A stretch of 64,000 nucleotides of DNA from an uncultured Gemmatimonadota bacterium (GCA_964519015.1 CAZFHZ010000004.1:3479-67478), one strand, 5' to 3'; positions 1,086 through 39,548 are shown, counted from the first letter of the stretch. The notes: generated by a model from the letters alone, not told the origin. A program made the numbers and translations.

Positions 1086-1880
1086 CTATCTCCAATCGGC
1101 CGGATCGGACCCTCCCCTCCGGTAGCGGTCTTCCAGCTCCCGGTCGGAGGCCCCCATCCGGTAGCGTACGCCCAGCTCCAGCCGTCGTAATACGTTGGCC
1201 AGATGCCCTTCCCGGCGGTACCGCCGTCCGCTGCTGACCACCGCTCCCTCCAGCCGGCGTCCCCATCCGCCGCGCCGCAGCCGCGCCACCAGGTCGAGGT
1301 CCTCGAACAGGGGAAGGGGGGCGTAGCCGCCGCTGTCGAGGTACCGGCGGCGGGTGACGAGCAGACCCTGATTACCCCGCGGACGGCCGGTCAGCCGGGC
1401 CTTGAGGCTGATCGCGCGTTCGATCCACCGCTCCCAGCGGGAGGGTCCGTCCAGGCGCAGGTCGAACCAGCCCCACCCGAAACCGGGATCGGTCTGCACC
1501 GCCGCGATCGCTGCGACCGCCTCCCGGGTCAACGCGGTATCGACGTGGAGGAAGAGCAGGGTGGTGATCTCCCCTTCCTCCAGCACCCGCATCGCGCCGC
1601 TCCGGAGTTGGGGACCGCGCCCCCGCGGTGCCGGGACGACGACGACCCGGATGTGCTCGAGCACGGCATCGAGCGTGCGCTGGTAACGGCGACTCATCAG
1701 GGAGGTGATGGCGTCCACGGTACCGTCGCGGCTCCCCCCGTCGGCCACCACGATGGTGCAACCCGGCAGCAGGCCGGCCAGATGGCGCAGACAGATGGTC
1801 ACCTCTCCGACCTCGTCGAGCACCGGCACGACGACGGCGAGCCAGGAGAAGGTCGTCTCAGGTCCGGTCACAGGAAACAC
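1086..1880 (-). CDS. Family-2 glycosyltransferase (TIGR04283-like)
   Basis: C-terminal 260 aa of ORF 1086..2933: SWLAVVVPVLDE...TIVVADGGSRDGT...LLFLHVDT...RPRGNQGLLVTRRRYLDSGGY...EDLDLVARLRRGG... typical GT2/TIGR04283 motifs. N-terminal 350 aa of the track ORF is low-complexity junk antisense to the DmpA gene; start set at an internal GTG (1880), start uncertain. Confidence 0.7.
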   Translation of the reverse strand: MFPVTGPETTFSWLAVVVPVLDEVGEVTICLRHLAGLLPGCTIVVADGGSRDGTVDAITSLMSRRYQRTLDAVLEHIRVVVVPAPRGRGPQLRSGAMRVLEEGEITTLLFLHVDTALTREAVAAIAAVQTDPGFGWGWFDLRLDGPSRWERWIERAISLKARLTGRPRGNQGLLVTRRRYLDSGGYAPLPLFEDLDLVARLRRGGWGRRLEGAVVSSGRRYRREGHLANVLRRLELGVRYRMGASDRELEDRYRRGGSDPADWR

Positions 1881-2025: not shown

Positions 2026-3222
2026 ATGAAGACACGGATCCGTTCCCTCACTCCGGCGCTCCTGCTGCCGGTCCTACTCCTGGCGGCCCCGACCCTGGCC
2101 CAGCGTCCCGAGGCCTCCGTCCGCCCGCGCGCCCGTGATCTGGGCGTGGTCATCGGACGGTTGCCGACCGGTCCCGACAACGCCCTCACCGACGTGGCGG
2201 GCACCCGCGTTGGCCAGGTCACCCTCTGGGAGGGGGAAGGGGTACGCACCGGGGTCACCGCGATCCTCCCCCATCCCGGGGAGGTCTTCTGGGACAAGGT
2301 CCCGGGGGCCGTGGTGGTGGGGAACGGTTTCGGGAAGCTGGCCGGCTCCACCCAGGTGATGGAATTGGGCACCATCGAGACCCCCATCCTGCTCTGCGGG
2401 ACCCTGAACGTCCCCCGGGTGGCCGATGCCCTACTCAGCTGGATGATGGCGCGGCCCGGTCTTGAAGGGGTGCGTTCGATCAACCCGCTGGTGGGGGAGA
2501 CCAACGACGGCGGCCTCAGCGACATCCGGCGGCGGCCGGTGGGGGAGCGGGAGGTCTTCGCCGCCCTGGAGGGCGCCCACCCGGGTCCGATCGAGGAGGG
2601 ATGTGTCGGGGCCGGGACCGGCACCCAGGCCCTGGGCTTCAAGGGTGGGATCGGCACCAGCAGCCGGACGGTTGAGGTGGGTGGGATCGGCACCTGCATG
2701 GTCGGGGTGCTGGTCCAATCCAACTTCGGCGGTTCCCTCCAGGTCAACGGTGCCCCGGTCGGGACCGAGATCCGGCGCCGCCTGCGCATCCCCGCGGATC
2801 TGGGTCCGGGAGCCGATTCCGATGACGGCTCCTGCATGATCGTGGTGGCCACCGATGCGCCCCTGGAGGCGCACAACCTGCGCCGGCTGGCGGCCCGGGC
2901 CCTGGTCGGACTGGGCCGATCCGGTTCGAACATGAGTAACGGTTCGGGGGACTACGTCATCGCCTTCTCGACCGCGGAGAGTGTCCGGGTGCACAGCCGC
3001 CAGGGAGATCGGGTCCGTCCGGGACCCTACCTGGGCAACGACGCGGTGAGCGGCCTGTTCGAAGCCGTCATGGAAGCGACCGAGGAGGCGATCCTCAACT
3101 CCCTGCTCAAGGCCGTCGATGTGACCGGGTTGGGGGGCCGGACCGCCCGCGCTATTCCCATCGACCTCTTCGTCGAGGTCTGTCGCGACTACCATGTCAT
3201 CCCGCCCGTCCCTCCGCGTTGA
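2026..3222 (+). CDS. DmpA/S58 family peptidase (L-aminopeptidase/D-Ala esterase-like), secreted
   Basis: Signal peptide MKTRIRSLTPALLLPVLLLAAPTLAQ; TGVTAILPHPG...VVVGNGFGK...GAGTGTQALGFKGGIGTSSR... matches DmpA/OAT Ntn-hydrolase fold. Confidence 0.75.
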   Translation: MKTRIRSLTPALLLPVLLLAAPTLAQRPEASVRPRARDLGVVIGRLPTGPDNALTDVAGTRVGQVTLWEGEGVRTGVTAILPHPGEVFWDKVPGAVVVGNGFGKLAGSTQVMELGTIETPILLCGTLNVPRVADALLSWMMARPGLEGVRSINPLVGETNDGGLSDIRRRPVGEREVFAALEGAHPGPIEEGCVGAGTGTQALGFKGGIGTSSRTVEVGGIGTCMVGVLVQSNFGGSLQVNGAPVGTEIRRRLRIPADLGPGADSDDGSCMIVVATDAPLEAHNLRRLAARALVGLGRSGSNMSNGSGDYVIAFSTAESVRVHSRQGDRVRPGPYLGNDAVSGLFEAVMEATEEAILNSLLKAVDVTGLGGRTARAIPIDLFVEVCRDYHVIPPVPPR

Positions 3223-3264
3223 CGGGCCGGGGACCCCTGTCGAGAGTCGGAGGAGGTTCGTGAG

Positions 3265-4332
3265 ATGAGCGATCGCGTCAGCCGACGGCGCTTCCTGGAG
3301 CGGACCGCCGGGGCCACGGCCGGGGCCGCCTTCATGGGAGGGGTGCCCAACCTCAATCTGCGCTATCCCCTCGGATCGCCACCCGGATTGCCGTTAGTGC
3401 TCTGTTCGGGGCGCAAGACCTGGGCCGCTGACGCCGCCTGGGCGGTCCTCAGGGACGGGGGGGAGGCACTCGACGCCGTGCATGCCGGTGCCATGGCCGC
3501 CGAGGTCTACCCGAACGACACCAGTGTGGGGGTGGGAGGACTGCCCAACGAAGAGGGGGTCGTCCAGCTCGACTGCACCATCATGGACGGACTTTCCATG
3601 AACTGCGGCGCGGTCGGCTGTCTGGAAGGGATCGAGCACCCCTCCACGGTCGCCCGCTGGGTGATGGAGCGGACCGATCACATCATGCTGGTCGGCCGGG
3701 GAGCGCAGGCGTTCGCGCTCAAGATGGGACTGAAGGTCACCGACATCTCCGGTGAGGCGAGCCGTTCCTGGTACCAGCGCTGGGTCGGCGAGCGGAGCGC
3801 CACCGACGACTGGCTCAACGCCGAGGAGAGCGCCCGGAAGATGAAGCGGCCCCTCCCTCCCAGCGAGCAGGGGCGCCGCCGGCGTGAGCTGGAACGGACC
3901 TACGGCACGATCAACGTGCTGGCCGTGGATACCCGGGGGAACGTGGCCGGCTGTACCACCACTTCCGGACTGAGCGGCAAGATCCCGGGGCGATGCGGCG
4001 ATTCCCCCATCATCGGGGCAGGCCTCTACGTGCTGCGGGGCGTGGGTGCGGCGGGTTTCACCGGACGGGGTGAAGAGGTCATCCGGGTGTGCGGCTCTTT
4101 CACCGTCTGCGAGGGGATGCGCCGGGGGATGACCCCGACCGAAGCCAGCCGGGAGGCGATCCGGCGCATGGTCGAGGAGACCAACGACGGACAGGCGGAC
4201 TTCAGCGACAACGCGGTGGCCATCAACGCCCGGGGGGAGTGGGGCTCCTTCACCGTCACGCCCGGCTACACCTACACCATCCACAACAACGACGGGCAGC
4301 AGTTCGTGACCGCGGACGCCTGGCGGGAGTAG
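3265..4332 (+). CDS. Isoaspartyl peptidase/L-asparaginase (glycosylasparaginase-type Ntn hydrolase), Tat-exported
   Basis: Twin-arginine motif SRRRFLERTAGATAGAAF; autoproteolytic site region ...RTYGTINVLAVDTRGNVAGCTTTSGLSGKIPGRCGDSPIIGAGLY typical of asparaginase_2 family. Confidence 0.8.
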   Translation: MSDRVSRRRFLERTAGATAGAAFMGGVPNLNLRYPLGSPPGLPLVLCSGRKTWAADAAWAVLRDGGEALDAVHAGAMAAEVYPNDTSVGVGGLPNEEGVVQLDCTIMDGLSMNCGAVGCLEGIEHPSTVARWVMERTDHIMLVGRGAQAFALKMGLKVTDISGEASRSWYQRWVGERSATDDWLNAEESARKMKRPLPPSEQGRRRRELERTYGTINVLAVDTRGNVAGCTTTSGLSGKIPGRCGDSPIIGAGLYVLRGVGAAGFTGRGEEVIRVCGSFTVCEGMRRGMTPTEASREAIRRMVEETNDGQADFSDNAVAINARGEWGSFTVTPGYTYTIHNNDGQQFVTADAWRE

Positions 4333-4356
4333 CCCGCTCCGGCCAGCCGATACGCG

Positions 4357-4381
4357 AAGGCCCCGGGGTGACCGGGGCCTT
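4357..4381. terminator. GC hairpin between convergent genes (10-bp perfect stem AAGGCCCCGG/CCGGGGCCTT, 5-nt loop)
   Basis: Sequence gaaggccccggggtgaccggggccttcgtc directly downstream of asparaginase stop (4332) and of the minus-strand repeat protein stop (4406); weak U-tract (ttcgtc) on plus side. Confidence 0.5.
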
Positions 4382-4405
4382 CGTCGCAGGTGACCGGGGG
4401 GCGGT

Positions 4406-6370
4406 TCAGCCGACCGCTCCCCACGGCGGGAGCAGCCGCTCCAGCAACGAGGGGGGCTTCAAATAGCGTTCGGCCAGCCGGTCGGCGCGCTCCGGGTCGA
4501 TCTTGCGGACCACCGCGATGGCGTCCCGGATCGTATCCCGGTTCCAGTCACCGAACCGCCGCTGGCGCGACTGGAGGATGATGACATCCTCCATCGCATC
4601 GACGATCCGCGTCTTCAGCCGGGCGTCCGCTCCGGGCAGGAGGGCTCTTCCGGCCCCGATCCGGGCCGTGGAGGAGAACGCCTCCGCTTCCATCACCCGC
4701 AGGTAGGCATCGGCGACCCGGCGATCGCGTCCCACCCAGGGATCGAGCCGTTCCATGACCGCCAGGAGGACCGAAGTGGAACGCCCGCGCTCCAGAGCGC
4801 CGAGCAGGGTGGTCCGCACCCCTTCATCGGACACCAGGGGACCGAGACTCTCGACCGCCTCGAGCTGCACGCTGGTGGAGTTCTGACTCCGGAGCGCCTC
4901 ACCCAGGACCGCCCGCACCCGGGGATCGTCACGGTAGGGGACCAGTTGCTTCACCACCGCCAGCTGGACGCTGGTCGAAGTCCCCCCTTCGGCCAGCAGG
5001 CGGGTCAGCGCGACCCGGACCTGCTCCTGCCCGGTGTGGGCGGAAGCCAGTTGGACCGCCTTGAGCTGTACGCTGGTACTGTTCCGTGGGCTCAGCGCCT
5101 CGGCCAGGGCGGCCGGACCGGAAGGGGTCTTCAGGTGGCGGGCGAGCGCATCGATCGCCTCCAGCTGCACCGAAGAGGAGATCCCGCCGGCGCGGAAGAG
5201 TTCCAGCAGGGCGGCGGCCGAGGACTCCTCGTCCCTGCCCGTGGCCAGGGCGCGCACGGCCTCGAGCTGGACCGAGGAGGAAGTCGGACCGGTCAGACCG
5301 ACCCGGGCGGTGGCGCGCACCTCGGCGACCGAGGAGGTCCGGGCGATCCGCATGGCGGCCGCCTGGACGCTCGAGGAGTTCCCGGTCCGGGCCGCGGCGG
5401 CCAGGATCGGCACGATGGCCGGGTCATCCTTGCGGGCCTCCAGGACCGAGAGGATCTTGAGCTGGACCGAAGCAGAGACGTTGCCCTCCATGACCCGGCG
5501 CACCGCGTCGATCGCTTCGGGTTCGAGCATCCTGACCCCGAGTGCCTCCGCCGCCGCCAGCTGGACCGAACTCGAGGTGTTCGGGCGCAGCGCCCGGGCC
5601 AGGGCGGTCCGCACCACCCCTTCCCCGACCTGCCGGGAGAGGACCTCGATCGCCTTGAGCTGCACGCTCGCGGAGTTCTCCTCCTCCAGCAGGCGACCGG
5701 CGCCGGCCGCCACCTCGGATCGGGCGGCCACCGGGGTGAGGACCTCGAGCGCCTTGAGCTGCACGCTGGTCGAGTGTCCCGGCTCCAGCGCCGAGAGGAT
5801 GAGGCGTCGGGCCACGTTCTCCTGCAGGCGATCGCTCAGCACCGTCACCAGCTCGAGCTGACGGCTGGTGCTCTCCCGGCGCATGATCTCCTCCAGGACC
5901 GCCTCGGCCGTCAGGTCTCCCCGGCGGGCCAGCGACATGGCCACCTCGCGGCGCATCTCCCAGGAGAGTCCCGATTCGAGCAGGTTCTCCAACGCCCCCG
6001 CATAGGCGGGATCCCGCCCCGCCCCCATGAGCGCGACCTGCCGCTCACGGGCGCTGGCGGCCCGGGTCGAGTCGGGCCAGCGCCGGAGCAGCTCGGCGTA
6101 GGCGGCCACCGCCTGGTCGTTCCGACCCAGCCGTTCCAGCACATACCCGGTGTAGAACTGCGCGTCGTCCGCCTCCGCGCTCTCCGGCATCTCGGTCACG
6201 ACCCGGCGAAACCCGGTCAGGGCGGCTTCGTAGCGTTCCTCGATCAGGTCCTCGCGGGCCTTCAGATAGACCGCCCGGGCGTCCTGCTGGGCACCCGCGA
6301 TCAGCGGCGCCACCAGCACGAATACCGCGACGACCGGGCCGAGCCCTCGCTTCATCATCCGCGTCATCAC
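4406..6370 (-). CDS. Secreted TPR + HEAT-like tandem-repeat protein (about 13 x 33-aa repeats with S(S/T)SVQLxAxxxL core)
   Basis: Signal peptide MMTRMMKRGLGPVVAVFVLVAPLIAGAQQ; N-terminal TPR-like region (YbgF-like); then repeats STSVQLKALEVL / ASVQLKAIEVL / SSVQLAAAEAL / STSVQLEAVESL ... every about 33 aa; DNA shows matching 99-100 bp periodicity (CTNGAGCTGNACNSNNG motif at 4954,5054,5160,5265,5358,5455,5558,5654,5752,5855). ATG overlaps the anti-sigma stop (ATGA at 6367-6370). Confidence 0.7.
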   Translation of the reverse strand: MMTRMMKRGLGPVVAVFVLVAPLIAGAQQDARAVYLKAREDLIEERYEAALTGFRRVVTEMPESAEADDAQFYTGYVLERLGRNDQAVAAYAELLRRWPDSTRAASARERQVALMGAGRDPAYAGALENLLESGLSWEMRREVAMSLARRGDLTAEAVLEEIMRRESTSRQLELVTVLSDRLQENVARRLILSALEPGHSTSVQLKALEVLTPVAARSEVAAGAGRLLEEENSASVQLKAIEVLSRQVGEGVVRTALARALRPNTSSSVQLAAAEALGVRMLEPEAIDAVRRVMEGNVSASVQLKILSVLEARKDDPAIVPILAAAARTGNSSSVQAAAMRIARTSSVAEVRATARVGLTGPTSSSVQLEAVRALATGRDEESSAAALLELFRAGGISSSVQLEAIDALARHLKTPSGPAALAEALSPRNSTSVQLKAVQLASAHTGQEQVRVALTRLLAEGGTSTSVQLAVVKQLVPYRDDPRVRAVLGEALRSQNSTSVQLEAVESLGPLVSDEGVRTTLLGALERGRSTSVLLAVMERLDPWVGRDRRVADAYLRVMEAEAFSSTARIGAGRALLPGADARLKTRIVDAMEDVIILQSRQRRFGDWNRDTIRDAIAVVRKIDPERADRLAERYLKPPSLLERLLPPWGAVG

Positions 6371-7239
6371 CTCGACTCCTCCCGGATGGACTCGCCATCC
6401 CTCCCGTTCCAGCCCCCCTGCCTCCGCGCTTCGGCGATGGCGGTGGTCAGCCGTCGTTCCAGGTCCCCTTCCCCCAACCGCTGCCGCGCGACCAGTTCCC
6501 GCACCAGGACCAGGTCGGGACCCGGTTCGGCGGCCAGGGCAGCGATCTCCTCGAGCAGCAGTTCCGCCTTCCGTATCCCCGCCAGCAGACCGGCGTCCCG
6601 TTCGGGATCGAGGTCGCGGCGCAGCAAGGCCGCCTGGCGGACCAGTTCTCGCGCCCGTTCCCGCACCGCCTCCCGTTCGGCCAATCCGCCCCCCGAGACC
6701 TCGAAGGTCATCACCCCGGTGACCATCTCACTCAGTCCGTGCGCGAAACCCAGACCCGCATCGGTCAGCAGGTCGGCTCGCACCAGGGCCGCCACCGCCG
6801 CCGGGTCCGGGGCGGTTTCCCGGGGTCCTTCCCCGACCGGACCGGGACCGACCGTTCCGTATCCGGCCAGCCGTCCGATCCCGATCCCGGCCCCCAGCAG
6901 CAGCACGGCGGCCGCCGCCCGCGGCCACCAGACGGGACCCGACCGGCGGCGACCTTCTCCGGCGAACGGACCGAGACGGTTCTGCAGGGCCCGCCAGGCC
7001 CGGATCTGCTGCCCGGTCTCTTCCACTCCGGTCGGGGCCGGCCAGGGCAGGGGCGCCTCCGAACAGGCACCCAGTGCCTTCCGGCCCCGGCTGGCCCAGA
7101 CCATCGCCCGGCGACAGCCGGGGCAGCTCGCCAGGTGCTCCCGGGCCGCGGCTTCCCGCTCCCCTCCCAACTCGCCGGCCAGCAGCGCTTCCAGCTCCGG
7201 CTCCCAGGCGGGACAGGCGTTGTTCGTGTCCTTTTCCAT
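6367..7239 (-). CDS. Zinc-finger (zf-HC2) transmembrane anti-sigma factor
   Basis: Internal ATG at 7239: MEKDTNNACPAWEPELEALLAGELGGEREAAAREHLASCPGCRRAM (H-x3-C-x2-C ZAS motif), single TM segment WWPRAAAAVLLLGAGIGIG; ORF-track N-terminal extension overlaps sigma gene and was trimmed. Lies 6 bp after sigma stop. Confidence 0.7.
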   Translation of the reverse strand: MEKDTNNACPAWEPELEALLAGELGGEREAAAREHLASCPGCRRAMVWASRGRKALGACSEAPLPWPAPTGVEETGQQIRAWRALQNRLGPFAGEGRRRSGPVWWPRAAAAVLLLGAGIGIGRLAGYGTVGPGPVGEGPRETAPDPAAVAALVRADLLTDAGLGFAHGLSEMVTGVMTFEVSGGGLAEREAVRERARELVRQAALLRRDLDPERDAGLLAGIRKAELLLEEIAALAAEPGPDLVLVRELVARQRLGEGDLERRLTTAIAEARRQGGWNGRDGESIREESR

Positions 7240-7244
7240 CCGGT

Positions 7245-7817
7245 TCACACCCCCTCGAGCAATTCGTTGTCCAGCCAGGTCCCCAGCTTGCGCAGTCCAC
7301 GGAAGACCTGGGTACGCGCGGTGACCTCCTCGCAGCCCAGGACCTCGGCCACCTGGCGCAACGACAGACCATCGAAGTAGCGCAGCACGACCGCGGCCCG
7401 CTGCCCATCGGGCAGGCGGTCCAGCGCCACCCGGACCGCGCCGGCCCGCTCCCGGGCGGCCAGCCGGTCGAGTACCGGCTCGGTCCCACCCCCGGCGGAG
7501 AAGACCTGGCCGCTCCACGAATGGTGCAGCCGCTGCTTGCGCTGTCGATGGCGCCGCACCTCGATGGCCCGGTTGACCGCGATCCGCTTCAGCCAGGGGA
7601 AGAAGCGATCGCCGTCGCTCAACCGGGAGAGCGCCTCCAGGGCCGAGAGGAAGGCCTCCTGGACCGTATCCTCGGCCGCCGCCCGATCCCCGTTCAGGAT
7701 CCCGGCGACCAGGCGCACGGTCGGCTCGAAATAGCGCCGGTGCAGCACGCCGTATCCCTCCAGGTCCCCGGCCAGGACCTGTTCCACGCAGCTGCGGTCT
7801 GTCGTCAGGGTCGTCAT
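7245..7817 (-). CDS. ECF-type RNA polymerase sigma-70 family factor
   Basis: From internal ATG 7817: MTTLTTDRSCVEQVLAGDLEGYGVLHRRYFEPTVRLVAGIL... region 2, and ...DGQRAAVVLRYFDGLSLRQVAEVLGCEEVTARTQVFRGLRKL region 4 HTH. Confidence 0.8.
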   Translation of the reverse strand: MTTLTTDRSCVEQVLAGDLEGYGVLHRRYFEPTVRLVAGILNGDRAAAEDTVQEAFLSALEALSRLSDGDRFFPWLKRIAVNRAIEVRRHRQRKQRLHHSWSGQVFSAGGGTEPVLDRLAARERAGAVRVALDRLPDGQRAAVVLRYFDGLSLRQVAEVLGCEEVTARTQVFRGLRKLGTWLDNELLEGV

Positions 7818-7861
7818 GGGTCTCCGCAGATAGAGTCGGAGCGGACCCTCCGATTGTTGCA

Positions 7862-7890
7862 CGAAAAAAGGCCCCGCGCGGGGGCCTTCC
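7862..7890 (-). terminator. Rho-independent terminator downstream of TolC-family gene
   Basis: Minus-strand reads aaGGCCCCCGCGCGGGGCCttttttcgtg: GC stem-loop followed by T6 run immediately after stop at 7915. Confidence 0.7.
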
Positions 7891-7914
7891 TCCGCCGGCC
7901 GACGCCGGAGCGGC

Positions 7915-9453
7915 TCACTCCTGCTGGTTGAGCAGGGCGGCCAGGGTCGCGGTGAGGGGCTGGTCCCGCTCCCAGTCCCAGAAGGTGCGCCGCTGCAGGT
8001 CGGAGAGCGCCCCCTTGTAGTCGAGGAAGGCACTCAGGTAACTGCGGCGGGCGTCGGCCAGCCGGTTCTGGGTGAGGATCAGGTCCTGGGTGTTGAGGCT
8101 CCCCTCCTCGAAACGCTCGAGTGAGAGCCGGAAGGAACGTTCGGCCGCGTTGACGCTCGGGACCAGCATCTCCAGCCGGCGCTGCGCCTCGGCGACGCGG
8201 TCGACCACATCCCGCACCTCACGCTCGATCGTGATCCGGGTCTCGTCGAGCTGCCGGTCCACCTTGCGGATCTCGGCCATCTTGGCGCTGACCTGAGCCC
8301 GATTGCGCCCCCAGTCCCAGAGCGGGATGTTGAAGTTGACCGCGGCCCCGCGGGTCTGGTCGGGATCGAGGAGGGCGTCGTAGAGCTGGTCCATCTCGTT
8401 CCCCCGCCCCTCCAGCCCCAGGATCAGGCTGACCGTGCCCCGCACCGCCCCCCAGGAGCGGCGCTCCCGCAGGTCCATCTCGTTGTACTCCTGCCAGATC
8501 TGGTTCTGGCGCACCTCGGTGCGCTGGTCGAGGGCACGCTGGATCGCCAGCGCCTCGTCGATCTCCACCGGGATGTAGGTGGTCTCGATCTCCAGCTCGA
8601 TGGGAACGTTCAGTCCCAGCCCGACCTGCTGCTTGAAGCCTGATTTCTCCCGGCCGAGCCGGCCGGTGGCTGAGGAGGAACGATTGCGGCGGTCAGCCAG
8701 GTCGACCTCGAGCTGGAGCAGGTCGATCTCGGTCAGGCTCCCCGCCTGGAAGCGGCGCCGCCCGATGGCATAGGAGCGCTCCAGGCGCGTGACTTCCTCG
8801 CGCGCCAGCAGGTCCTCGTAGGTCCGCTGGTAGAGCATGAAGTAGGCCCGGGTCACATCACCGATCGCATCGATCTGCTCGTTCAGGAATCGGATCTGGG
8901 TTTCCTCCAGGCGCAGCTCGGCCCTTCGGATGTTGAGCTGGATCGCGTTCGGCTGCAGGATCGGCTGCTCGTAACGGATGAAGAACTTGCTGTTGTAGCT
9001 CTTCAGGCCCGGCGTGTAGCTGAAGAGCTGGTCCTGGGTGCGGTTCCACACCCCGTTCAGCGAGACGACCCCGTCCGTGGGCAACGGTTGCCGGATGGAG
9101 AGGTTGGCCGAGTAGCGGGCCCCCTGGGTGCTGAGCAGTTTCGGGTTCCCGGTGTCGGGGTCGGTGATCTCCTTGATCGACTGGTCGTAGTTGGGGAGCG
9201 TCACCGCCAGGCTGGCGTTCGACTTGAGTGCCGCCCGGTTCGCCACCAGGTTGAACTGGTCGCGCTCGAGGTCGAGACGCACCCGCTCCATGCGCCAGGA
9301 TCCGCTCAGGGCGAGCCGCAGCGCCATTTCCAGGTTGAGGGTCGTTACCTGAGAGGAGTCCTCGACCCGCGGCTGGGCGGCGGCTGCGGCCGGCAGCAGA
9401 AGGGTGACCAGCAGGAGGACGCGGACCGGGGGCAGGGAGGTCGTGAGCATCAC
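7915..9453 (-). CDS. TolC-family outer-membrane efflux protein
   Basis: Signal peptide MMLTTSLPPVRVLLLVTLLLPAAAAAQ; two OEP repeats with coiled-coil segments (…LEMALRLALSGSWRMERVRLDLERDQ…, …LQRRTFWDWERDQ…) typical of TolC/OprM family. Confidence 0.8.
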   Translation of the reverse strand: MMLTTSLPPVRVLLLVTLLLPAAAAAQPRVEDSSQVTTLNLEMALRLALSGSWRMERVRLDLERDQFNLVANRAALKSNASLAVTLPNYDQSIKEITDPDTGNPKLLSTQGARYSANLSIRQPLPTDGVVSLNGVWNRTQDQLFSYTPGLKSYNSKFFIRYEQPILQPNAIQLNIRRAELRLEETQIRFLNEQIDAIGDVTRAYFMLYQRTYEDLLAREEVTRLERSYAIGRRRFQAGSLTEIDLLQLEVDLADRRNRSSSATGRLGREKSGFKQQVGLGLNVPIELEIETTYIPVEIDEALAIQRALDQRTEVRQNQIWQEYNEMDLRERRSWGAVRGTVSLILGLEGRGNEMDQLYDALLDPDQTRGAAVNFNIPLWDWGRNRAQVSAKMAEIRKVDRQLDETRITIEREVRDVVDRVAEAQRRLEMLVPSVNAAERSFRLSLERFEEGSLNTQDLILTQNRLADARRSYLSAFLDYKGALSDLQRRTFWDWERDQPLTATLAALLNQQE

Positions 9454-9502
9454 CGGGGACTCCTTGGGAGGAGGTTGCAGGCTCAGGAGGAAGGTAGGCC
9501 GG

Positions 9503-10274
9503 TCAGAAAGCGATCGCCAGCGCGTTGCGGACTGAGAGGTCGGTACGCTTCACCCCGGCCGGCGGCCGGCTGTCATACACCAGACGGGCGTCCAGTCGCA
9601 ACGAGAGTCGGGCCAGCAGCTGGACGGCGATGCCCAGGTCGTGGAGCACCCGGAAGTCGGCCGGTTCCGCCAGGCGCGGCTGCCAGTAGAGCTGGCTGCC
9701 CAGGGTGGCGGTCGGACTCAGGCTCCAGCCCACACTCAGCAGCAGGGAACCGCGCCAGCCCGGTGCCGAGGTGTCGGCACGCAGTTCTTCCTGCTCGTAC
9801 ATGAGGATCAACCCGGTGTCGAGGCGCGGCCCCTCCGCCCGCAGGGTGGTCCGGACCCCGGCCCCCGCGAGCACCCGCCGGCGCAGCCGCACGAAGGCGT
9901 CCCGCTGCAGCTGGTAGAGGGCCTCCAGGGTGAGTCCCGGCGCGAGTCGGTACCCGTAGCGCAGATGCCCCATGGCATGGTCGGCGACCCGGCGCCCCTG
10001 GGCCTTCTCCCAGGCGCCCGCGGCCACCATCTGGACCAGCTGCCGTCCTCCCATCCAGCGCAGCAGCCCGCTGCCGTCCACCGCGGCCGATTCCGCGTTC
10101 CCTTTCTTTAACCCGAATCCGACCTGGAGTGCGCCGGAGAGTCCCGGCTCGGGATCCCCGGCCAGCAGGCGCTCGATGTTGACGATCTGGGCACCGGCCG
10201 GGCGGGAGATCAGGAAGGTGGAGAGCACCAGGAGCGGGAGGAGCCGGTAGCGAGGCCGCGACACCCGCGGGGAC
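9503..10274 (-). CDS. Putative outer-membrane beta-barrel protein (DUF481/OmpV-like)
   Basis: From internal GTG 10274: VSRPRYRLLPLLVLSTFLISRPAGAQ signal peptide, alternating amphipathic beta-strand pattern, C-terminal ...NALAIAF aromatic terminus typical of OMPs. Track ORF N-terminal extension overlaps htpX in another frame and was trimmed. Confidence 0.5.
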
Positions 10275-10275
10275 C

Positions 10276-11214
10276 TCACATCGCCCGCAGGCGGGAGACC
10301 CGTTCGAGCAGTGGCGGGTGGGTGCTGAACAGGTTCTTGGCCCGGTCCTCGAACGGCTTGATGGGATTCACGATATAGAGATGTTGGGTGGCACGGTTGG
10401 CGGCCTCGAGCACTTCCTTGTCCCCCGAGATCTTCTCCAGTGCCCGGGCCAGGCCTTCCGGGTAGCGGGTGAGTTGCACCGCCCCCGCGTCGGCCAGGTA
10501 TTCTCGTTTCCGGCTGATCGAGAGCTGGAGCAACCGGGCAAAGAAGGGGGCCAGCACCGCGGCCAGCACCGCCACGATCAGGATGGCCGCCTGGCCCCCC
10601 CCACTCCCCTGCCCTGTGGAGCGGCTGCGGGTGCGGCCTCCCCCCCAGCGCATACTGCGCAGGAAAGCGTCGGCGAGCAGGGCGGTCAGGCCCACCAGCA
10701 CCCCGATCATGGTCTGGAGCCGGATATCGTAGAAACGGACGTGCGAGAGCTCGTGAGCCATCACCCCCTGCAGCTCGTCCCGGGTCAGTTTCTGCCTCAG
10801 CCCGGTGGTGATGGCCACCACCGCGTGTTCCGGATCGCGTCCGGTGGCGAAAGCGTTGGGAGCGGTGTCCTCGATCACCCAGATCTGCGGGAGGGGAAGA
10901 CCGCCGGCCAGACAGAGTTCCTCGATGACGTTCCACAGTTCGGGATCGTCTGCTTTGTGGATCTGGTGGGCCTGGCTGACCGCGAGCACCATGCTCCCCC
11001 CCGCGAACCAGGCCACCAGGCTCCAGACGATCGCGACCACGCCGAAGATACCGAGGAAACCGATCCCCTCCCCCATCCACGCTTCCCCGATGAGCCAGCC
11101 CAGACCGGTTACCACCGCGATGAAGAGCAGCACGAGCAGGGCGGTATTCCGCTTGTTCGCGTCGATATGGGTGTAGAACCCGCCCAGGGTGCGTTCTCCA
11201 GCCGCATCCATCAC
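10276..11214 (-). CDS. htpX: Zinc metalloprotease HtpX (peptidase M48)
   Basis: TM helices plus HELSHV zinc motif (…LQGVMAHELSHVRFYDIRL…) and C-terminal …NLFSTHPPLLERVSRL. Confidence 0.85.
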   Translation of the reverse strand: MMDAAGERTLGGFYTHIDANKRNTALLVLLFIAVVTGLGWLIGEAWMGEGIGFLGIFGVVAIVWSLVAWFAGGSMVLAVSQAHQIHKADDPELWNVIEELCLAGGLPLPQIWVIEDTAPNAFATGRDPEHAVVAITTGLRQKLTRDELQGVMAHELSHVRFYDIRLQTMIGVLVGLTALLADAFLRSMRWGGGRTRSRSTGQGSGGGQAAILIVAVLAAVLAPFFARLLQLSISRKREYLADAGAVQLTRYPEGLARALEKISGDKEVLEAANRATQHLYIVNPIKPFEDRAKNLFSTHPPLLERVSRLRAM

Positions 11215-11255
11215 GTGATTCTCCGTCTCATCGGGTCGAGGGGCGCCGGTCCGAT

Positions 11256-11810
11256 TCAGCGCAGGTCGACCTTCGGTACCTGCCGGTCGGCCTCCCCGAT
11301 CTCGAAGAACTCCTGCTGGGTGAAGTTGAACATGCCGGCCACGATGTTCGCCGGGAACTGTTCGATCCGGGTGTTGAACACCATGACCATGTCGTTGTAG
11401 TGCTGCCGCGAGAAGGAGATCTTGTTCTCGGTGCCGGTCAGCTCCTCTTGCAGCGCCAGTACGTTCTGGTTGGCCTTCAGGTCGGGATAGTTCTCCACCA
11501 GCGCGAAGAGCTGACGCAGCGCCCCGGTCAGCATGTTCTCGGCGGCCCCTTGGGCGGCCGGTCCCTCGGCCTTCATGGCCGAGTTGCGCGCTTCAATGAC
11601 CCGGGTGAGGGTCTCCTGCTCGTAGGCCATGTAGTCTTTGACCGTCTCCACCAGGTTGGGGATCAGGTCGTACCGGCGCTTGAGCTGGACGTCGATCTGA
11701 GACCAGGCGTTCCGGAACCGGTTGCGCAGGGTCACCAGACCGTTGTAGGTGACGACGACCCAGGCCAGAACGGCGAACCCGAGAACCACCAGGATGAGTA
11801 GGACTTCCAT
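11256..11810 (-). CDS. lemA: LemA family membrane protein
   Basis: Internal ATG 11810: MEVLLILVVLGFAVLAWVVVTYNGLVTLRNRFRNAWSQIDVQLKRRYDLIPNLVETVK... classic LemA; commonly paired with htpX. Confidence 0.8.
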   Translation of the reverse strand: MEVLLILVVLGFAVLAWVVVTYNGLVTLRNRFRNAWSQIDVQLKRRYDLIPNLVETVKDYMAYEQETLTRVIEARNSAMKAEGPAAQGAAENMLTGALRQLFALVENYPDLKANQNVLALQEELTGTENKISFSRQHYNDMVMVFNTRIEQFPANIVAGMFNFTQQEFFEIGEADRQVPKVDLR

Positions 11811-11915
11811 CGATTCCCCTTTCACGCGATGGTGCGCCGGCGCGAACCGCGCCCACGCCATGACGTCCCCATTCTACTTCACGGCCCCCGCGAGTCCATC
11901 GGGAAAGCCACGGAT

Positions 11916-34311: not shown

Positions 34312-34389
<78 letters not shown>

Positions 34390-38667: not shown

Positions 38668-39548
38668 AGGTTCCTCATCCGATCGGGCAGATGCCCTTCC
38701 AGCAGGGTGGCCAGTTGCCGCCGGGTGGCCTCGGCGTCATGCTGTTTCAGTACACCGTTACGTGACCGTACCCGTCCGATCACGCCGGGATCGATCGCCG
38801 CGCTCCACACCCCCGAGGTGAAGGAGTCCCCTTCCACGATCGGGAACTCGCTGACGGGGGAGTAGACCAGGCTCCCCCCGCTGAAGAAGATACCATCCTC
38901 GAATCCGGTCCGGTTGCTGTAGGCGACCCAGCAGCCCAGCAGGTTGCCGAAGAGGCGAAGCAGGTCGCGCCAGGTCCGTCGCGAGGCCAGTTGCCCACTC
39001 GCCCGGGCGATCCCCCGGCCCGGCGCAGCCGAGAGAACCAGCAGGCCGGTGGCACCCTGGAGAGCCGCCAGCAACGCGGAAGAAGGATGCCAGACGTCTT
39101 CGCAGACCAGCAGGGCCAGGGTACCGAAAGGGGTCCGGAAGCTGTGCAGCTCCTCCCCCCGGGAGAAGAACCGCCCTTCGTCGAAGAGTCCGTAGGTGGG
39201 CAGATAGATCTTGCGGTGGAGATGAACAAGGTCTCCCCCCGCCCACCAGCCGGCGACGTTATAGAGCTGGCCGTCCTCCCCCCGTTCCACGAATCCGGCG
39301 GCGATCGGGAGGCGCCGGCTCAGTTCCCGTACCGGGTCGAGGCGCCGGTCCCCCGCCGGCAGGGCCACCTCGGCGGTCAGATCACGCAGCAGGTAGCCGG
39401 TCAGACCGAGTTCGGGAGTGATCAGCAGGTCGGCCTGTTGGATGACGGCGGCCTCCACTGCGGCCGCGAGCTGGTCCAGGTTGGGTTCGATCCGGCCGAG
39501 CACCGGACTCCACTGGCCCACCGCCACCCGGAAGGGAGCCTCGTTCAC
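38664..39548 (-). CDS. Carbon-nitrogen hydrolase (nitrilase superfamily); probable stand-alone glutaminase partner of NadE
   Basis: Catalytic triad context …LLITPELGLTGY… (E), …LHRKIYLPTYG… (K), …LLVCEDVWHP… (C). Stop overlaps nadE start (38664-38667); start overlaps ptsN stop. Confidence 0.7.
   Translation of the reverse strand: MNEAPFRVAVGQWSPVLGRIEPNLDQLAAAVEAAVIQQADLLITPELGLTGYLLRDLTAEVALPAGDRRLDPVRELSRRLPIAAGFVERGEDGQLYNVAGWWAGGDLVHLHRKIYLPTYGLFDEGRFFSRGEELHSFRTPFGTLALLVCEDVWHPSSALLAALQGATGLLVLSAAPGRGIARASGQLASRRTWRDLLRLFGNLLGCWVAYSNRTGFEDGIFFSGGSLVYSPVSEFPIVEGDSFTSGVWSAAIDPGVIGRVRSRNGVLKQHDAEATRRQLATLLEGHLPDRMRNL

Follow-up and report, generated by a model that had tools for sequence, protein, structure and literature searches.

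A conserved three-gene operon of uncultured soil bacteria encoding an ECF sigma factor, a zinc-finger anti-sigma factor and an exported TPR-HEAT solenoid protein

The 64-kb window, which is the whole stretch of DNA analyzed here, encodes on its minus strand between positions 7817 and 4406 an ECF sigma factor, a zinc-finger anti-sigma factor and a 654-aa exported repeat protein (Table 1). This three-gene stress-signalling operon is genuine, and uncultured soil bacteria have kept it as one unit. The sigma/anti-sigma pair is ordinary, and the sole novelty is the uncharacterized repeat protein that constantly accompanies it. An earlier note on this DNA had described three co-directional minus-strand genes, and all of their positions were confirmed. 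Two junctions had to be corrected. The gap between the sigma stop codon (7247-7245) and the anti-sigma ATG (7239) is 5 nt instead of 6 bp, and the proposed ATGA overlap between the anti-sigma and repeat genes is GTGA if translation starts at GTG 6370, or TGATG if it starts at ATG 6367. The repeat protein has 654 aa from the GTG and 653 aa from the ATG, the latter being the database product P0001.

Table 1. Positions of the genes, protein domains and regulatory elements of the operon in the window
Feature	Position	Strand	Basis or remark
Intrinsic-terminator-like hairpin with U6 run	7862..7894	minus	RNA fold; 3' of upstream TolC-like gene (stop 7917-7915)
Predicted ECF-type promoter TGCAAC-N17-CGACT	7834..7861 (28 nt); -35 box 7861-7856, -10 box 7838-7834	minus	16 nt before sigma ATG
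ECF (group 4) sigma-70 factor, 190 aa	7245..7817	minus	Pfam Sigma70_r2, r4_2, Sigma70_ECF; TIGR02937
Single-pass anti-sigma factor, 290 aa	6367..7239	minus	Pfam zf-HC2, alignment A2, AlphaFold model
Predicted cytoplasmic zinc-finger anti-sigma domain, ligands C9/H35/C39/C42	7215-7114	minus	
Anti-sigma transmembrane segment, ~residues 103-125	6933-6865	minus	
Conserved helical periplasmic domain of anti-sigma factor, residues 146-274	6804-6418	minus	
Shine-Dalgarno GGAGGAG for repeat gene	within the end of the anti-sigma gene	minus	
Exported TPR-HEAT solenoid protein, 654 aa	4406..6370	minus	Pfam/NCBIfam searches, alignment, AlphaFold model
Signal peptide, residues 1-27	6370-6290	minus	
CpoB/BamD-like TPR, about residues 30-117	6283-6020	minus	
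Array of 12 HEAT-type two-helix repeats, 32-34 aa each, residues 165-563	4682..5878	minus	
Degenerate 13th repeat (FSSTARI, ~residue 565) and conserved helical C-terminal cap (ADAMEDVI ... IDPERA)	4409..4681	minus	alignment A1, model, sister-family alignment up to IDPE motif
Perfect 12-bp G+C-rich hairpin without U-run	4355..4383	minus	between repeat gene and convergent asparaginase gene

The sigma factor matched PF04542, PF08281 and PF07638 and contains only sigma-2 and sigma-4 domains, which places it in ECF group 4. It scored 81.9 bits with TIGR02937 (cutoff 42.9). The closest solved relatives were E. coli RpoE (1or7, 6.5e-18) and 6in7_B, which was deposited as "RNA polymerase sigma-H factor" and which we take to be P. 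aeruginosa AlgU. The protein is not an RpoE (sigma-E) equivalog, since it reached 78.5 bits against the TIGR02939 cutoff of 236.15. The main text of the 2021 ECF classification does not mention a HEAT-repeat partner (Casas-Pastor et al., PMC7826278).

The anti-sigma factor was detected by Pfam zf-HC2 (PF13490) with a score of 26.5, above the cutoff of 22.2. The ZAS-type H-x3-C-x2-C motif noticed earlier is H35-x3-C39-x2-C42, with C9 in addition, and the four residues were invariant in 20 orthologues (alignment A2), in which the C-terminal domain was also conserved. The AlphaFold model was built with six sequences and is modest overall (pLDDT 65.8). Residues 10-58 were helical in it, and the C-terminal domain consisted of five helices at pLDDT values of about 80-90. 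A comparison of the fold with the PDB gave no significant match, and the periplasmic domain is without recognizable relatives. The match to the RsrA model TIGR03988 was weak (E 0.008), and identity as an RsrA equivalog was rejected on its score of 16.3 bits against a cutoff of 62.5.

In the repeat protein, a TPR-like, YbgF-type segment had been proposed before the repeats and was recovered by profile searches (TPR_6 at residues 69-101, YbgF-like at residues 33-108). The repeats themselves matched HEAT_2 (PF13646, PBS-lyase HEAT-like) above the gathering threshold with E = 7e-17, as tandem two-helix units in a solenoid. A total of 12 clear repeats start at residues 167, 200, 233, 266, 299, 332, 364, 398, 431, 465, 498 and 531; together with the degenerate unit, they agree fairly with the "about 13" counted before. 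They share the core NSSSVQLxA and the consensus xNSSSVQLxA(L/V)xAL..H...PEVRxALxxAL. The earlier note had considered this repeat type unassignable, but it can be assigned as a derived PBS-lyase/HEAT_2 repeat, because the canonical xxxVRxxAxxAL of a sister family aligns column for column with SSSVQLxAxxxL.

The AlphaFold model of the repeat protein is confident (pLDDT 90.7) and forms a single continuous alpha-solenoid. It is predicted to be all-alpha, with a CpoB/BamD-like TPR head, 12-13 PBS-HEAT-type repeats and a helical cap. The core positions of helix A were conserved across repeats (S 0.94, V 0.88). This SSSVQL core is probably structural, providing the helix N-cap and the buried V/L/A/L in place of the canonical D-x-x-VR-x-x-A-x-x-AL of helix A, and it is probably not a ligand site. 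At helix-B positions, a given repeat agreed better with its counterparts in orthologues than with the other repeats, a conservation pattern compatible with a specific binding surface.

A candidate ECF promoter, TGCAAC-N17-CGACT, was found 5' of the sigma gene and has no other exact match in the 64-kb window. Its AAC-containing -35 box and CG-containing -10 box upstream of the sigma factor's own gene have the form of an autoregulatory ECF promoter. A promoter of the TGCAAC-N17-CGCCT type was located just upstream of the cassette at every locus with a sigma gene and also at L012, about -30 to -50 from the start codon at every orthologous locus, in the conserved layout TTTTTCG-TGCAAC-N17-CG(C/A)CT. 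Each family locus contained one copy of the motif TGCAAC-N17-CRCCT and a single copy was present in the other loci fetched, while the sister loci carry the related TGCAAC-N17-GTCTT. Judged from its position and conservation, the promoter is probably recognized by the operon's own sigma factor.

The hairpin with the U6 run insulates the cassette from the TolC-like gene, and its T-run doubles as a T-rich element just 5' of the -35 box. The same layout of hairpin, T-run and TGCAAC was present in L014, L015 and L024 with different stem sequences; a simple terminator scan did not flag the hairpin in the window. At the other end, the G+C-rich hairpin region folded with -48.2 kcal/mol over a 74-nt stretch (z = -6.07) and is likely the 3' end of the transcript. 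Within the operon, an ECF-type promoter was found only 5' of the sigma gene, and scanning inside the three-gene unit revealed no promoter-like or terminator-like sites. At most orthologous loci, the sigma stop and the likely anti-sigma start overlap or lie a few nt apart, and most also retain the overlap or abutment of the anti-sigma and solenoid genes. The single transcript proposed in the earlier note is thus supported by the junctions, the conserved gene order, the promoter position, the flanking hairpins and the absence of internal signals. We infer that the three genes are co-transcribed and that the gene directly 3' of the sigma gene encodes its cognate anti-sigma factor.

Comparison of the orthologous loci (L001-L025) indicated that the cassette is kept in more than 20 metagenome-assembled genomes from Vicinamibacterales and other groups. 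Gene order was strictly kept in more than 20 loci and the linkage of the solenoid gene to the sigma/anti-sigma pair was constant, while all other neighbours were variable and the flanking genes unrelated. Across phyla, the three genes stay together in changing surroundings. In L012, the sigma gene and the anti-sigma domain are gone, but the promoter, the periplasmic half and the solenoid have been kept. Unless this locus is decaying or misassembled, it is hard to reconcile with an obligatory switch of three parts.

A sister family of full-length proteins with canonical HEAT motifs is homologous to the solenoid over 501 columns (hhalign probability 100%, E = 5.6e-46). On low-GC contigs, all five members checked are located behind an ECF sigma gene and a middle gene of 245-295 aa. 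The window anti-sigma factor was aligned with four of these five middle genes in a seven-sequence database. Those of L085, L086 and L087 aligned over about 240 aa with 22-25% identity and E about 2e-7, while that of L084 gave a weak alignment (E 0.03). In those three loci, the anti-sigma periplasmic domain has travelled together with the solenoid.

By analogy with RseB and ExoR, the operon may work as a self-contained ECF module with positive autoregulation, with the solenoid as the periplasmic partner of the anti-sigma factor, a reading to which we give an even chance. The anti-sigma factor would hold the sigma factor at the membrane, and the solenoid would sit in the periplasm, bound to the anti-sigma periplasmic domain as a co-sensor or modulator. 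There it might either shield the anti-sigma factor from proteolysis, as RseB and MucB do for RseA and MucA, or relay a signal, as FecA does to FecR and ExoR to ExoS. An envelope cue read by the repeat-specific concave surface or by the TPR head would alter this interaction, and the anti-sigma factor would be inactivated, most likely by regulated proteolysis. The freed sigma factor could then transcribe its own operon from the TGCAAC promoter, and this transcription would resupply anti-sigma factor and solenoid as feedback.

The linkage of the solenoid to the sigma/anti-sigma pair argues that it is more than a passive output. However, strict linkage is equally to be expected of a solenoid that is simply the principal product under control, such as a periplasmic effector of the scaffold or chaperone-like type made on envelope stress, with the anti-sigma factor sensing alone. 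The solenoid gene is the last on the autoregulated transcript, and the TPR head of its product is similar to the envelope-assembly factors CpoB and BamD. Neither the 64-kb window nor the flanking regions of related loci contained a further intergenic copy of the promoter, so the main target of the operon may be the operon itself. Co-transcription of an effector is known from other ECF operons, such as sigV-rsiV-oatA. Two observations argue against a pure output without proving the opposite. In at least three of the four sister loci examined, the anti-sigma periplasmic domain is still paired with the solenoid, at 22-25% identity, and the retained overlap or abutment of the two genes suggests that anti-sigma and solenoid amounts are matched. 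We therefore regard a solenoid without any signalling role as a credible explanation, though a somewhat unlikely one.

Alternatively, the input could be cytoplasmic, with the anti-sigma factor acting as a redox/thiol-sensing ZAS protein like RsrA and the periplasmic parts being accessory. The C9-x25-H35-x3-C39-x2-C42 arrangement has the ligand spacing of RsrA (C11/H37/C41/C44) and its ligands are invariant among the 20 orthologues, and the RsrA model did give its weak match. That match, however, fell far below the cutoff, and the anti-sigma factor is membrane-anchored with a conserved periplasmic domain. Many anti-sigma factors with the ZAS motif use zinc only structurally. Moreover, the anti-sigma factors of L084 and L085 lack the zinc ligands and have kept the transmembrane segment, the periplasmic domain and the solenoid, so the input is probably not cytoplasmic. 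This explanation appears improbable.

The resemblance of the TPR head could also mean that the third gene encodes the organism's own CpoB (YbgF) or BamD, as a housekeeping Tol-Pal/BAM component that merely adjoins the pair. The scores of the repeat protein were far under the family cutoffs, with 39 bits against 90.1 for TIGR02795 and 22.9 against 383 for PRK10803 in the case of CpoB, and 25.7 against 81.4 for TIGR03302 in the case of BamD. The TPR follows directly after the signal peptide, and a lipobox cysteine at the signal peptide end was absent in every orthologue aligned. About 540 further residues form HEAT repeats that are absent from CpoB and BamD. No tol-pal or bam genes were found near the cassette in the window or the related loci, and the linkage to the sigma/anti-sigma pair is constant while other neighbours vary. 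Identity with CpoB or BamD is largely refuted and very improbable.

The repeat gene also shows a DNA periodicity. The motif CTYGAGCTGSACSS has five exact matches against 0.01 expected, all within the repeat gene. The earlier note had reported a motif of ~100-bp period at ten positions; the periodicity held, whereas the count dropped to nine in-gene sites at up to two mismatches, which span 4859-5766 (plus strand) and are spaced by 99 or 102 nt with one 195-nt gap. Tandem Repeats Finder reported no array in the gene, and DNA identity between units was 46% on average with a maximum of 67%, so the periodicity merely reflects the conserved peptide motif. No gap the size of a repeat interrupted the alignment with a relative of 80% identity (P0002), and the spacing pattern 33,33,33,33,32,34,33,34,33,33 recurred in orthologues of 43-50% identity; unit number and spacing were the same in the close relative and most orthologues. 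Repeat numbers differed only between deep lineages: P0032 and P0036 lack one to one and a half units, and the sister family is shorter by about three. Slippage on the 99-bp unit is thus refuted among close relatives, and a hypervariable contingency locus with strain-to-strain differences in repeat number, for which only the regular spacing would speak, has a negligible probability.

Returning to the solenoid as partner of the anti-sigma factor, a bolder version would make it the receptor proper in the periplasm, within a class of ECF modules that spans phyla and would be new to science. The concave surface of 12-13 repeats might bind an extended envelope ligand, such as an unfolded outer-membrane protein, a lipoprotein or a cell-wall fragment, or the CpoB/BamD-like head might dock on an envelope machine, and occupancy would be passed to the five-helix periplasmic domain of the anti-sigma factor to release the sigma factor. 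We consider this version tentative and rather unlikely; if true, it would constitute a co-receptor mechanism distinct from the RseB, FecA and lysozyme-RsiV types.

Among bacterial signalling systems, ECF sigma/anti-sigma pairs are the most numerous "third pillar" and, to our knowledge, the input is unknown for most ECF groups. The locus provides a cleanly delimited three-gene module with its own predicted promoter and an uncharacterized, predicted periplasmic partner that is confidently modelled and is conserved from high-GC Vicinamibacterales-type genomes to low-GC lineages. The phyla concerned dominate soils and have almost no genetics. If the solenoid is a sensor, it would represent a new route feeding envelope information into an ECF switch; if it is only an output, the locus is an ordinary autoregulated ECF operon with unusual cargo. 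The sigma factor, the anti-sigma factor and the 28-nt promoter are small, orthogonal-looking parts, which makes them directly testable in E. coli, and they could serve as a synthetic-biology switch.

Among known systems, the anti-sigma factor resembles the ZAS family (RsrA, ChrR, RslA) in its H-x3-C-x2-C motif, the cysteine 26 residues before the histidine and the zf-HC2 score, but it is membrane-spanning with a conserved periplasmic domain, and its zinc ligands are dispensable in the sister clade. The solenoid differs from other PBS-lyase HEAT-like/HEAT_2 proteins, including the designed alphaRep scaffolds, in that helix A begins with N-S-S-S-V-Q-L instead of D-x-x-V-R and that it is exported, fused to a CpoB-like TPR head and always located behind a sigma/anti-sigma pair. 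The likeness to the TPR domains of CpoB and BamD in fold and sequence is confined to the domain level; the solenoid has no coiled-coil N-terminus, lipid anchor, or tol-pal or bam context.

ExoR is a Sel1-repeat protein that inhibits a sensor kinase (ExoR-ExoS/ChvI), and FecI-FecR-FecA has a comparable gene order. Both share with the operon only the proposed logic, in which a helical-repeat or third-gene product would contact the periplasmic domain of a single-pass transducer. They have no sequence relationship to it; the transducer here is an anti-sigma factor and not a kinase, and the partner is soluble and not an outer-membrane transporter.

In RpoE-RseA-RseB of E. coli and AlgU-MucA-MucB of P. 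aeruginosa, the gene order is the same: an ECF sigma factor is followed by an anti-sigma factor that crosses the membrane once and binds sigma with its cytoplasmic domain, and then by a co-transcribed third protein of the periplasm. As in both, the promoter position in the window fits autoregulation. Unlike the RpoE-type operon, the cassette has no RseC and its -35/-10 motif is TGCAAC/CGCCT. In contrast to RseA and MucA, the anti-sigma factor carries a zinc finger, and its helical periplasmic domain is unrelated to theirs. RseB is smaller and beta-rich, while the third protein here has about 630 residues, is modelled as an all-alpha TPR/HEAT solenoid and gave no MucB_RseB match in Pfam or NCBIfam. 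It does not belong to the RseB/MucB family, and the analogy lies only in gene position and proposed role.

Three co-directional genes on the minus strand were confirmed, encoding in this order an ECF sigma factor, an anti-sigma factor and a repeat protein (listed with their surroundings in the table below). The G+C content of the region is about 70%, and the long antisense ORFs that are typical of such DNA had no support as genes. Such ORFs, among them one of 792 aa on the plus strand (4946-7324), were rejected as high-GC artefacts, the conserved frame being that of the minus strand. The sigma factor scored 81.9 bits with TIGR02937 (cutoff 42.9) and reached no equivalog cutoff; its nearest solved relatives were E. 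coli RpoE (E = 6.5e-18) and 6in7_B, which we take to be AlgU. Its stop codon is separated by 5 nt from the start of the anti-sigma gene. In the anti-sigma factor, C9, H35, C39 and C42 were invariant among 20 orthologues, and a hydrophobic segment at residues ~103-125 is preceded by RRR. Conservation was also found in the C-terminal half, where residues 146-274 form a five-helix domain (pLDDT about 80-90) in an AlphaFold model that is of modest quality overall (mean pLDDT 65.8) and was built from a six-sequence alignment. This periplasmic domain matched no Pfam family and had no significant fold match in the PDB (best E 0.42). Read from the sequence, the anti-sigma factor is a single-pass protein whose zinc-finger, sigma-binding domain is cytoplasmic and whose conserved helical domain lies outside the membrane. 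When it was used as the query of word-indexed searches, singly or as a profile, only 7-9 proteins were returned, probably because of its low-complexity A/G/R-rich words. The sigma/anti-sigma pair of the cassette is ordinary.

Features of the cassette and its surroundings (positions in the window)
Feature	Position	Strand	Remarks
Relaxed promoter match	1495-1522		
S58 (DmpA-like) peptidase and asparaginase-2 genes	2026-4332	plus	convergent with the cassette; syntenic in closest genomes
Perfect 12-bp hairpin	4383-4355	minus	z = -6.07 for 74-nt stretch
Repeat protein (solenoid) gene	start GTG 6370 or ATG 6367; ends 4406	minus	
Anti-sigma factor	7239-6367	minus	290 aa; Pfam zf-HC2 above cutoff
ECF sigma factor	7817-7245	minus	190 aa; Pfam Sigma70_r2, Sigma70_r4_2, Sigma70_ECF
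Candidate promoter TGCAAC-N17-CGACT	7861-7834	minus	16 nt before sigma ATG
G+C-rich hairpin with U6 run	7894-7862	minus	RNA folding; after TolC-like gene end (7915)
TolC/OEP-like protein	9453-7915	minus	stand-alone, no adjacent pump genes
DUF481 outer-membrane protein	about 10330-9503	minus	
M48/HtpX-like protease	11214-10276	minus	
Relaxed promoter match	10451-10478		inside M48 gene
LemA	11861-11256	minus	
tRNA gene	34317-34389	minus	sole Rfam match in the 64-kb window
Relaxed promoter match	38921-38948		inside 294-aa ORF

The start of the repeat gene overlaps the stop codon of the anti-sigma gene (a GTGA overlap if the GTG is used), and the Shine-Dalgarno sequence GGAGGAG lies just 5' of it. 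The database product of this gene, P0001, has 653 aa. In the family alignment, its signal peptide keeps a junction between A and Q and lacks a lipobox cysteine. The TPR head matched TPR_6 and, below their cutoffs, the YbgF and BamD models; in the PDB it matched the sequence of the CpoB TPR domain (E = 2.7e-10). With those two models below cutoff, a CpoB/BamD orthologue is essentially excluded. After twelve clear repeats of 32-34 aa each, the first at residue 167, come a 13th, degenerate one and a helical cap that is conserved. The repeat consensus, calculated over 12 units in 27 sequences, was xNSSSVQLxA(L/V)xAL..H...PEVRxALxxAL. The SSSVQL-A-L positions of helix A were kept across repeats (S 0.94, V 0.88), and at helix-B positions a given repeat agreed better among orthologues than different repeats did with one another. 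The serine-rich core is probably structural, consisting of the helix N-cap and buried residues, and helix B would make a repeat-specific surface. The third protein is thus, as read from its sequence, an exported TPR-HEAT solenoid. Three orthologues of 707-708 aa (P0008, P0012 and P0017) displayed an extra C-terminal extension of ~50-60 aa (columns 670-746 of A1, the alignment of orthologues) with the conserved ending PP(H/F)L(T/A)G(Q/R)L(V/F)YY, the terminal aromatics of which resemble a signal for sorting or outer-membrane targeting.

A 99-bp periodicity of the DNA had been described for this gene in the earlier note. The motif concerned occurs exactly five times (0.01 expected) and, with up to two mismatches, at nine in-gene sites that are 99 or 102 nt apart with one gap of 195 nt. 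The motif sites were recovered, but no tandem DNA repeat was: TRF detected no tandem array in the repeat gene, and the mean identity of the units was 46% for DNA (maximum 67%) and 31% for protein. The periodicity is a by-product of the conserved peptide motif. The unit spacing (33, 33, 33, 33, 32, 34, 33, 34, 33, 33) is repeated in orthologues that are 43-50% identical, and P0002, a relative of 80% identity, aligned without repeat-sized gaps. Repeat number differed between deep lineages only, with P0032 and P0036 having one to one and a half units fewer. The low unit identity, the constant spacing in orthologues and the lack of a TRF array thus indicate an old, fixed repeat array, so that the proposed variation of repeat number by slippage did not hold and a slippage locus is essentially excluded.

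In the aligned upstream regions of the sigma genes, TGCAAC-N17-CG(C/A)CT was present in every locus ~30-50 nt before the start codon, often with TTTTTCG directly before it. A promoter upstream of 7817, suggested in the earlier note as a point to check, has its candidate in the window's copy of this motif, which is followed by a leader of ~10 nt with GGAG inside; the transcript would then begin near 7828-7826. The form of the motif is that expected of an ECF-dependent, autoregulated promoter. TGCAAC-N17-CRCCT occurred exactly once per locus in 19 family loci, always at the promoter site, and once in the remaining fetched loci. The window contained one exact promoter match; a looser -35 box added one intragenic site, and the sites from relaxed searches occurred at chance frequency. 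The layout of hairpin, T-run and TGCAAC was also found in relatives, with different stem sequences. Since its 61-nt stretch gave a z of only -1.45, this upstream hairpin, which was missed by a simple promoter/terminator scan, was accepted on its form and its recurrence in relatives, not on energy. The downstream hairpin sits between the repeat gene and the convergent asparaginase gene. The scan, a consensus search of 4200-8100, found nothing, inside the three-gene unit included. The unit appears, from direct reading of its sequence, to have its own conserved promoter and boundary hairpins.

Among 5.8 billion sequences, ~40 homologues of the repeat protein were found at 40-80% identity. When 1.84 billion cluster representatives were searched exhaustively with a profile, only 78 of 19,316 hits had E <= 1e-30, ~10 of them full-length clusters of the family and the others fragments and relatives. 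The family is small, and was found in ~20 metagenome-assembled genomes (species-representative genomes) and in no cultured strain. These genomes were mostly labelled Vicinamibacterales or Acidobacteriota, with some Gemmatimonadota, Marinacidobacterales and others. Complete Vicinamibacterales chromosomes with the cassette are OY761475.2, OZ253457.1, OZ242323.1, OZ252219.1 and OZ220718.1. Directly upstream of the repeat gene, nearly all loci with enough sequence had the sigma gene (49-63% identity) and anti-sigma gene (30-40%) in the same order, and in most loci the likely gene starts overlap the stop codon before them or lie close to it. Other neighbours of the cassette were unrelated between loci. 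The exceptions were L012 without the sigma gene, L023, truncated by the end of its contig, and L019 with a partial sigma gene and no anti-sigma match.

In L012 (contig CBDEVO010000003.1 of a Vicinamibacterales MAG), the TGCAAC promoter with its leader is fused at 5380-5470 to the anti-sigma transmembrane segment. What is missing is exactly the sigma gene plus the cytoplasmic domain of the anti-sigma factor; the periplasmic half and the solenoid gene are intact. Either the DNA was deleted naturally or the long-read assembly is in error. The cassette of L019 (5533-7950) lacks the anti-sigma gene, its sigma gene is truncated and its repeat gene is interrupted by a scaffold gap of 100 N, and P0007 (639 aa, from a 2.5-kb JGI contig) joins sigma, anti-sigma and solenoid pieces in one frame with internal deletions. 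These two are collapsed or decayed cassettes, probably assembly artefacts across repeats rather than real fusions.

The wider synteny of the window was common to only five loci (L010, L014, L015, L019 and L024), labelled Gemmatimonadota or simply 'bacterium', with a TolC-like gene upstream (58-61% identity to the window) and asparaginase (76-81%) and S58 peptidase (65-69%) genes downstream. These loci mark the window's own lineage, and the nearest synteny was with genomes labelled Gemmatimonadota. The TolC-like gene, syntenic with the cassette in this lineage only, belongs in the window to an envelope-related gene run immediately upstream of the cassette (7915-11861, minus strand). L010, L014 and L015 have ~1.6-2.8 kb extra between the solenoid and asparaginase genes, which is missing from the window.

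A sister family was detected among the profile hits, with proteins of 526-607 aa from genomes of ~45% G+C. Its members have the signal peptide, TPR head and C-terminal IDPE cap in common with the window protein, and their HEAT motifs are canonical, such as N-x-IVRxxAxxxL. Profile-profile comparison of the two families gave a probability of 100% (E = 5.6e-46, 501 columns), in which the VR-type helices of the sister family, with ~3 repeats fewer, were aligned to the SSSVQL helices. An ECF sigma gene and a middle gene of 245-295 aa precede the sister solenoid in all five members looked up; the truncated sigma gene in L084 was confirmed by Pfam. Comparison of four of these five middle genes with the anti-sigma factor of the window gave alignments over ~240 aa with 22-25% identity for L085, L086 and L087 (E about 2e-7 in a seven-sequence database), and only a weak one for L084 (E 0.03). 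Upstream motifs of the sister loci were TGCAAC-N17-GTCTT (L086, L087) and TGTAAAC...CGACTT (L085). The three proteins have thus remained associated across widely separated lineages. In the low-GC contigs L085, L088 and L089, the cassette directly follows (rplU-rpmA-)obg-rsfS, a housekeeping ribosome-associated cluster, L085 being cut upstream of obg; this position is conserved in their lineage. HEAT repeats were also found on a further transmembrane signalling protein, P0040 (1105 aa, JGI), a BlaR1-type M56 metallopeptidase signal transducer with a long extracytoplasmic array of canonical HEAT repeats (DVQREAVETLGE...).

The earlier note had interpreted the genes as one transcript with the solenoid as output of, or input to, the sigma/anti-sigma pair, which is largely supported. 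In the mechanism that we propose, the sigma factor would drive its own operon and be sequestered by the anti-sigma factor, the solenoid would bind the periplasmic domain of the latter, and on an envelope cue the solenoid would modulate anti-sigma inactivation. We give an even chance to the solenoid working with the anti-sigma factor in this way, beyond mere co-expression. The persistence of all three proteins together in very divergent lineages with changing neighbours, the tight anti-sigma/solenoid junction, and the loss of the zinc site in one clade with the periplasmic parts kept all argue for such a partnership. The solenoid may instead be only an effector, which we regard as possible but less likely. 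A cytoplasmic redox input, with the invariant zinc ligands of the window's family on its side, seems improbable: the anti-sigma factors of L084 and L085 are without zinc ligands, so the zinc site is inessential to the module. A partnership of solenoid and anti-sigma factor is the reading that we prefer.

Our literature search found no paper linking an ECF sigma/anti-sigma pair with a HEAT-repeat partner, and the main text of the 2021 ECF reclassification (PMC7826278) mentions none, as far as it was accessible; the cassette may already be listed as a conserved neighbourhood in its supplementary group descriptions. Two things are new here: an uncharacterised periplasmic TPR-HEAT solenoid, modelled with confidence, that is locked across phyla to an ECF sigma/anti-sigma pair, and a candidate promoter of the cassette that is sharply defined. 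By motif, the anti-sigma factor belongs to the zf-HC2/ZAS class, but it is no RsrA equivalog. The repeat protein falls into the HEAT_2 repeat class and has only the TPR domain in common with CpoB and BamD. The sigma factor scored below the RpoE equivalog cutoff, and neither the periplasmic domain of the anti-sigma factor nor the third protein is related to RseA or RseB. However, in logic and gene order the closest kin of the module are RpoE-RseA-RseB and AlgU-MucA-MucB.
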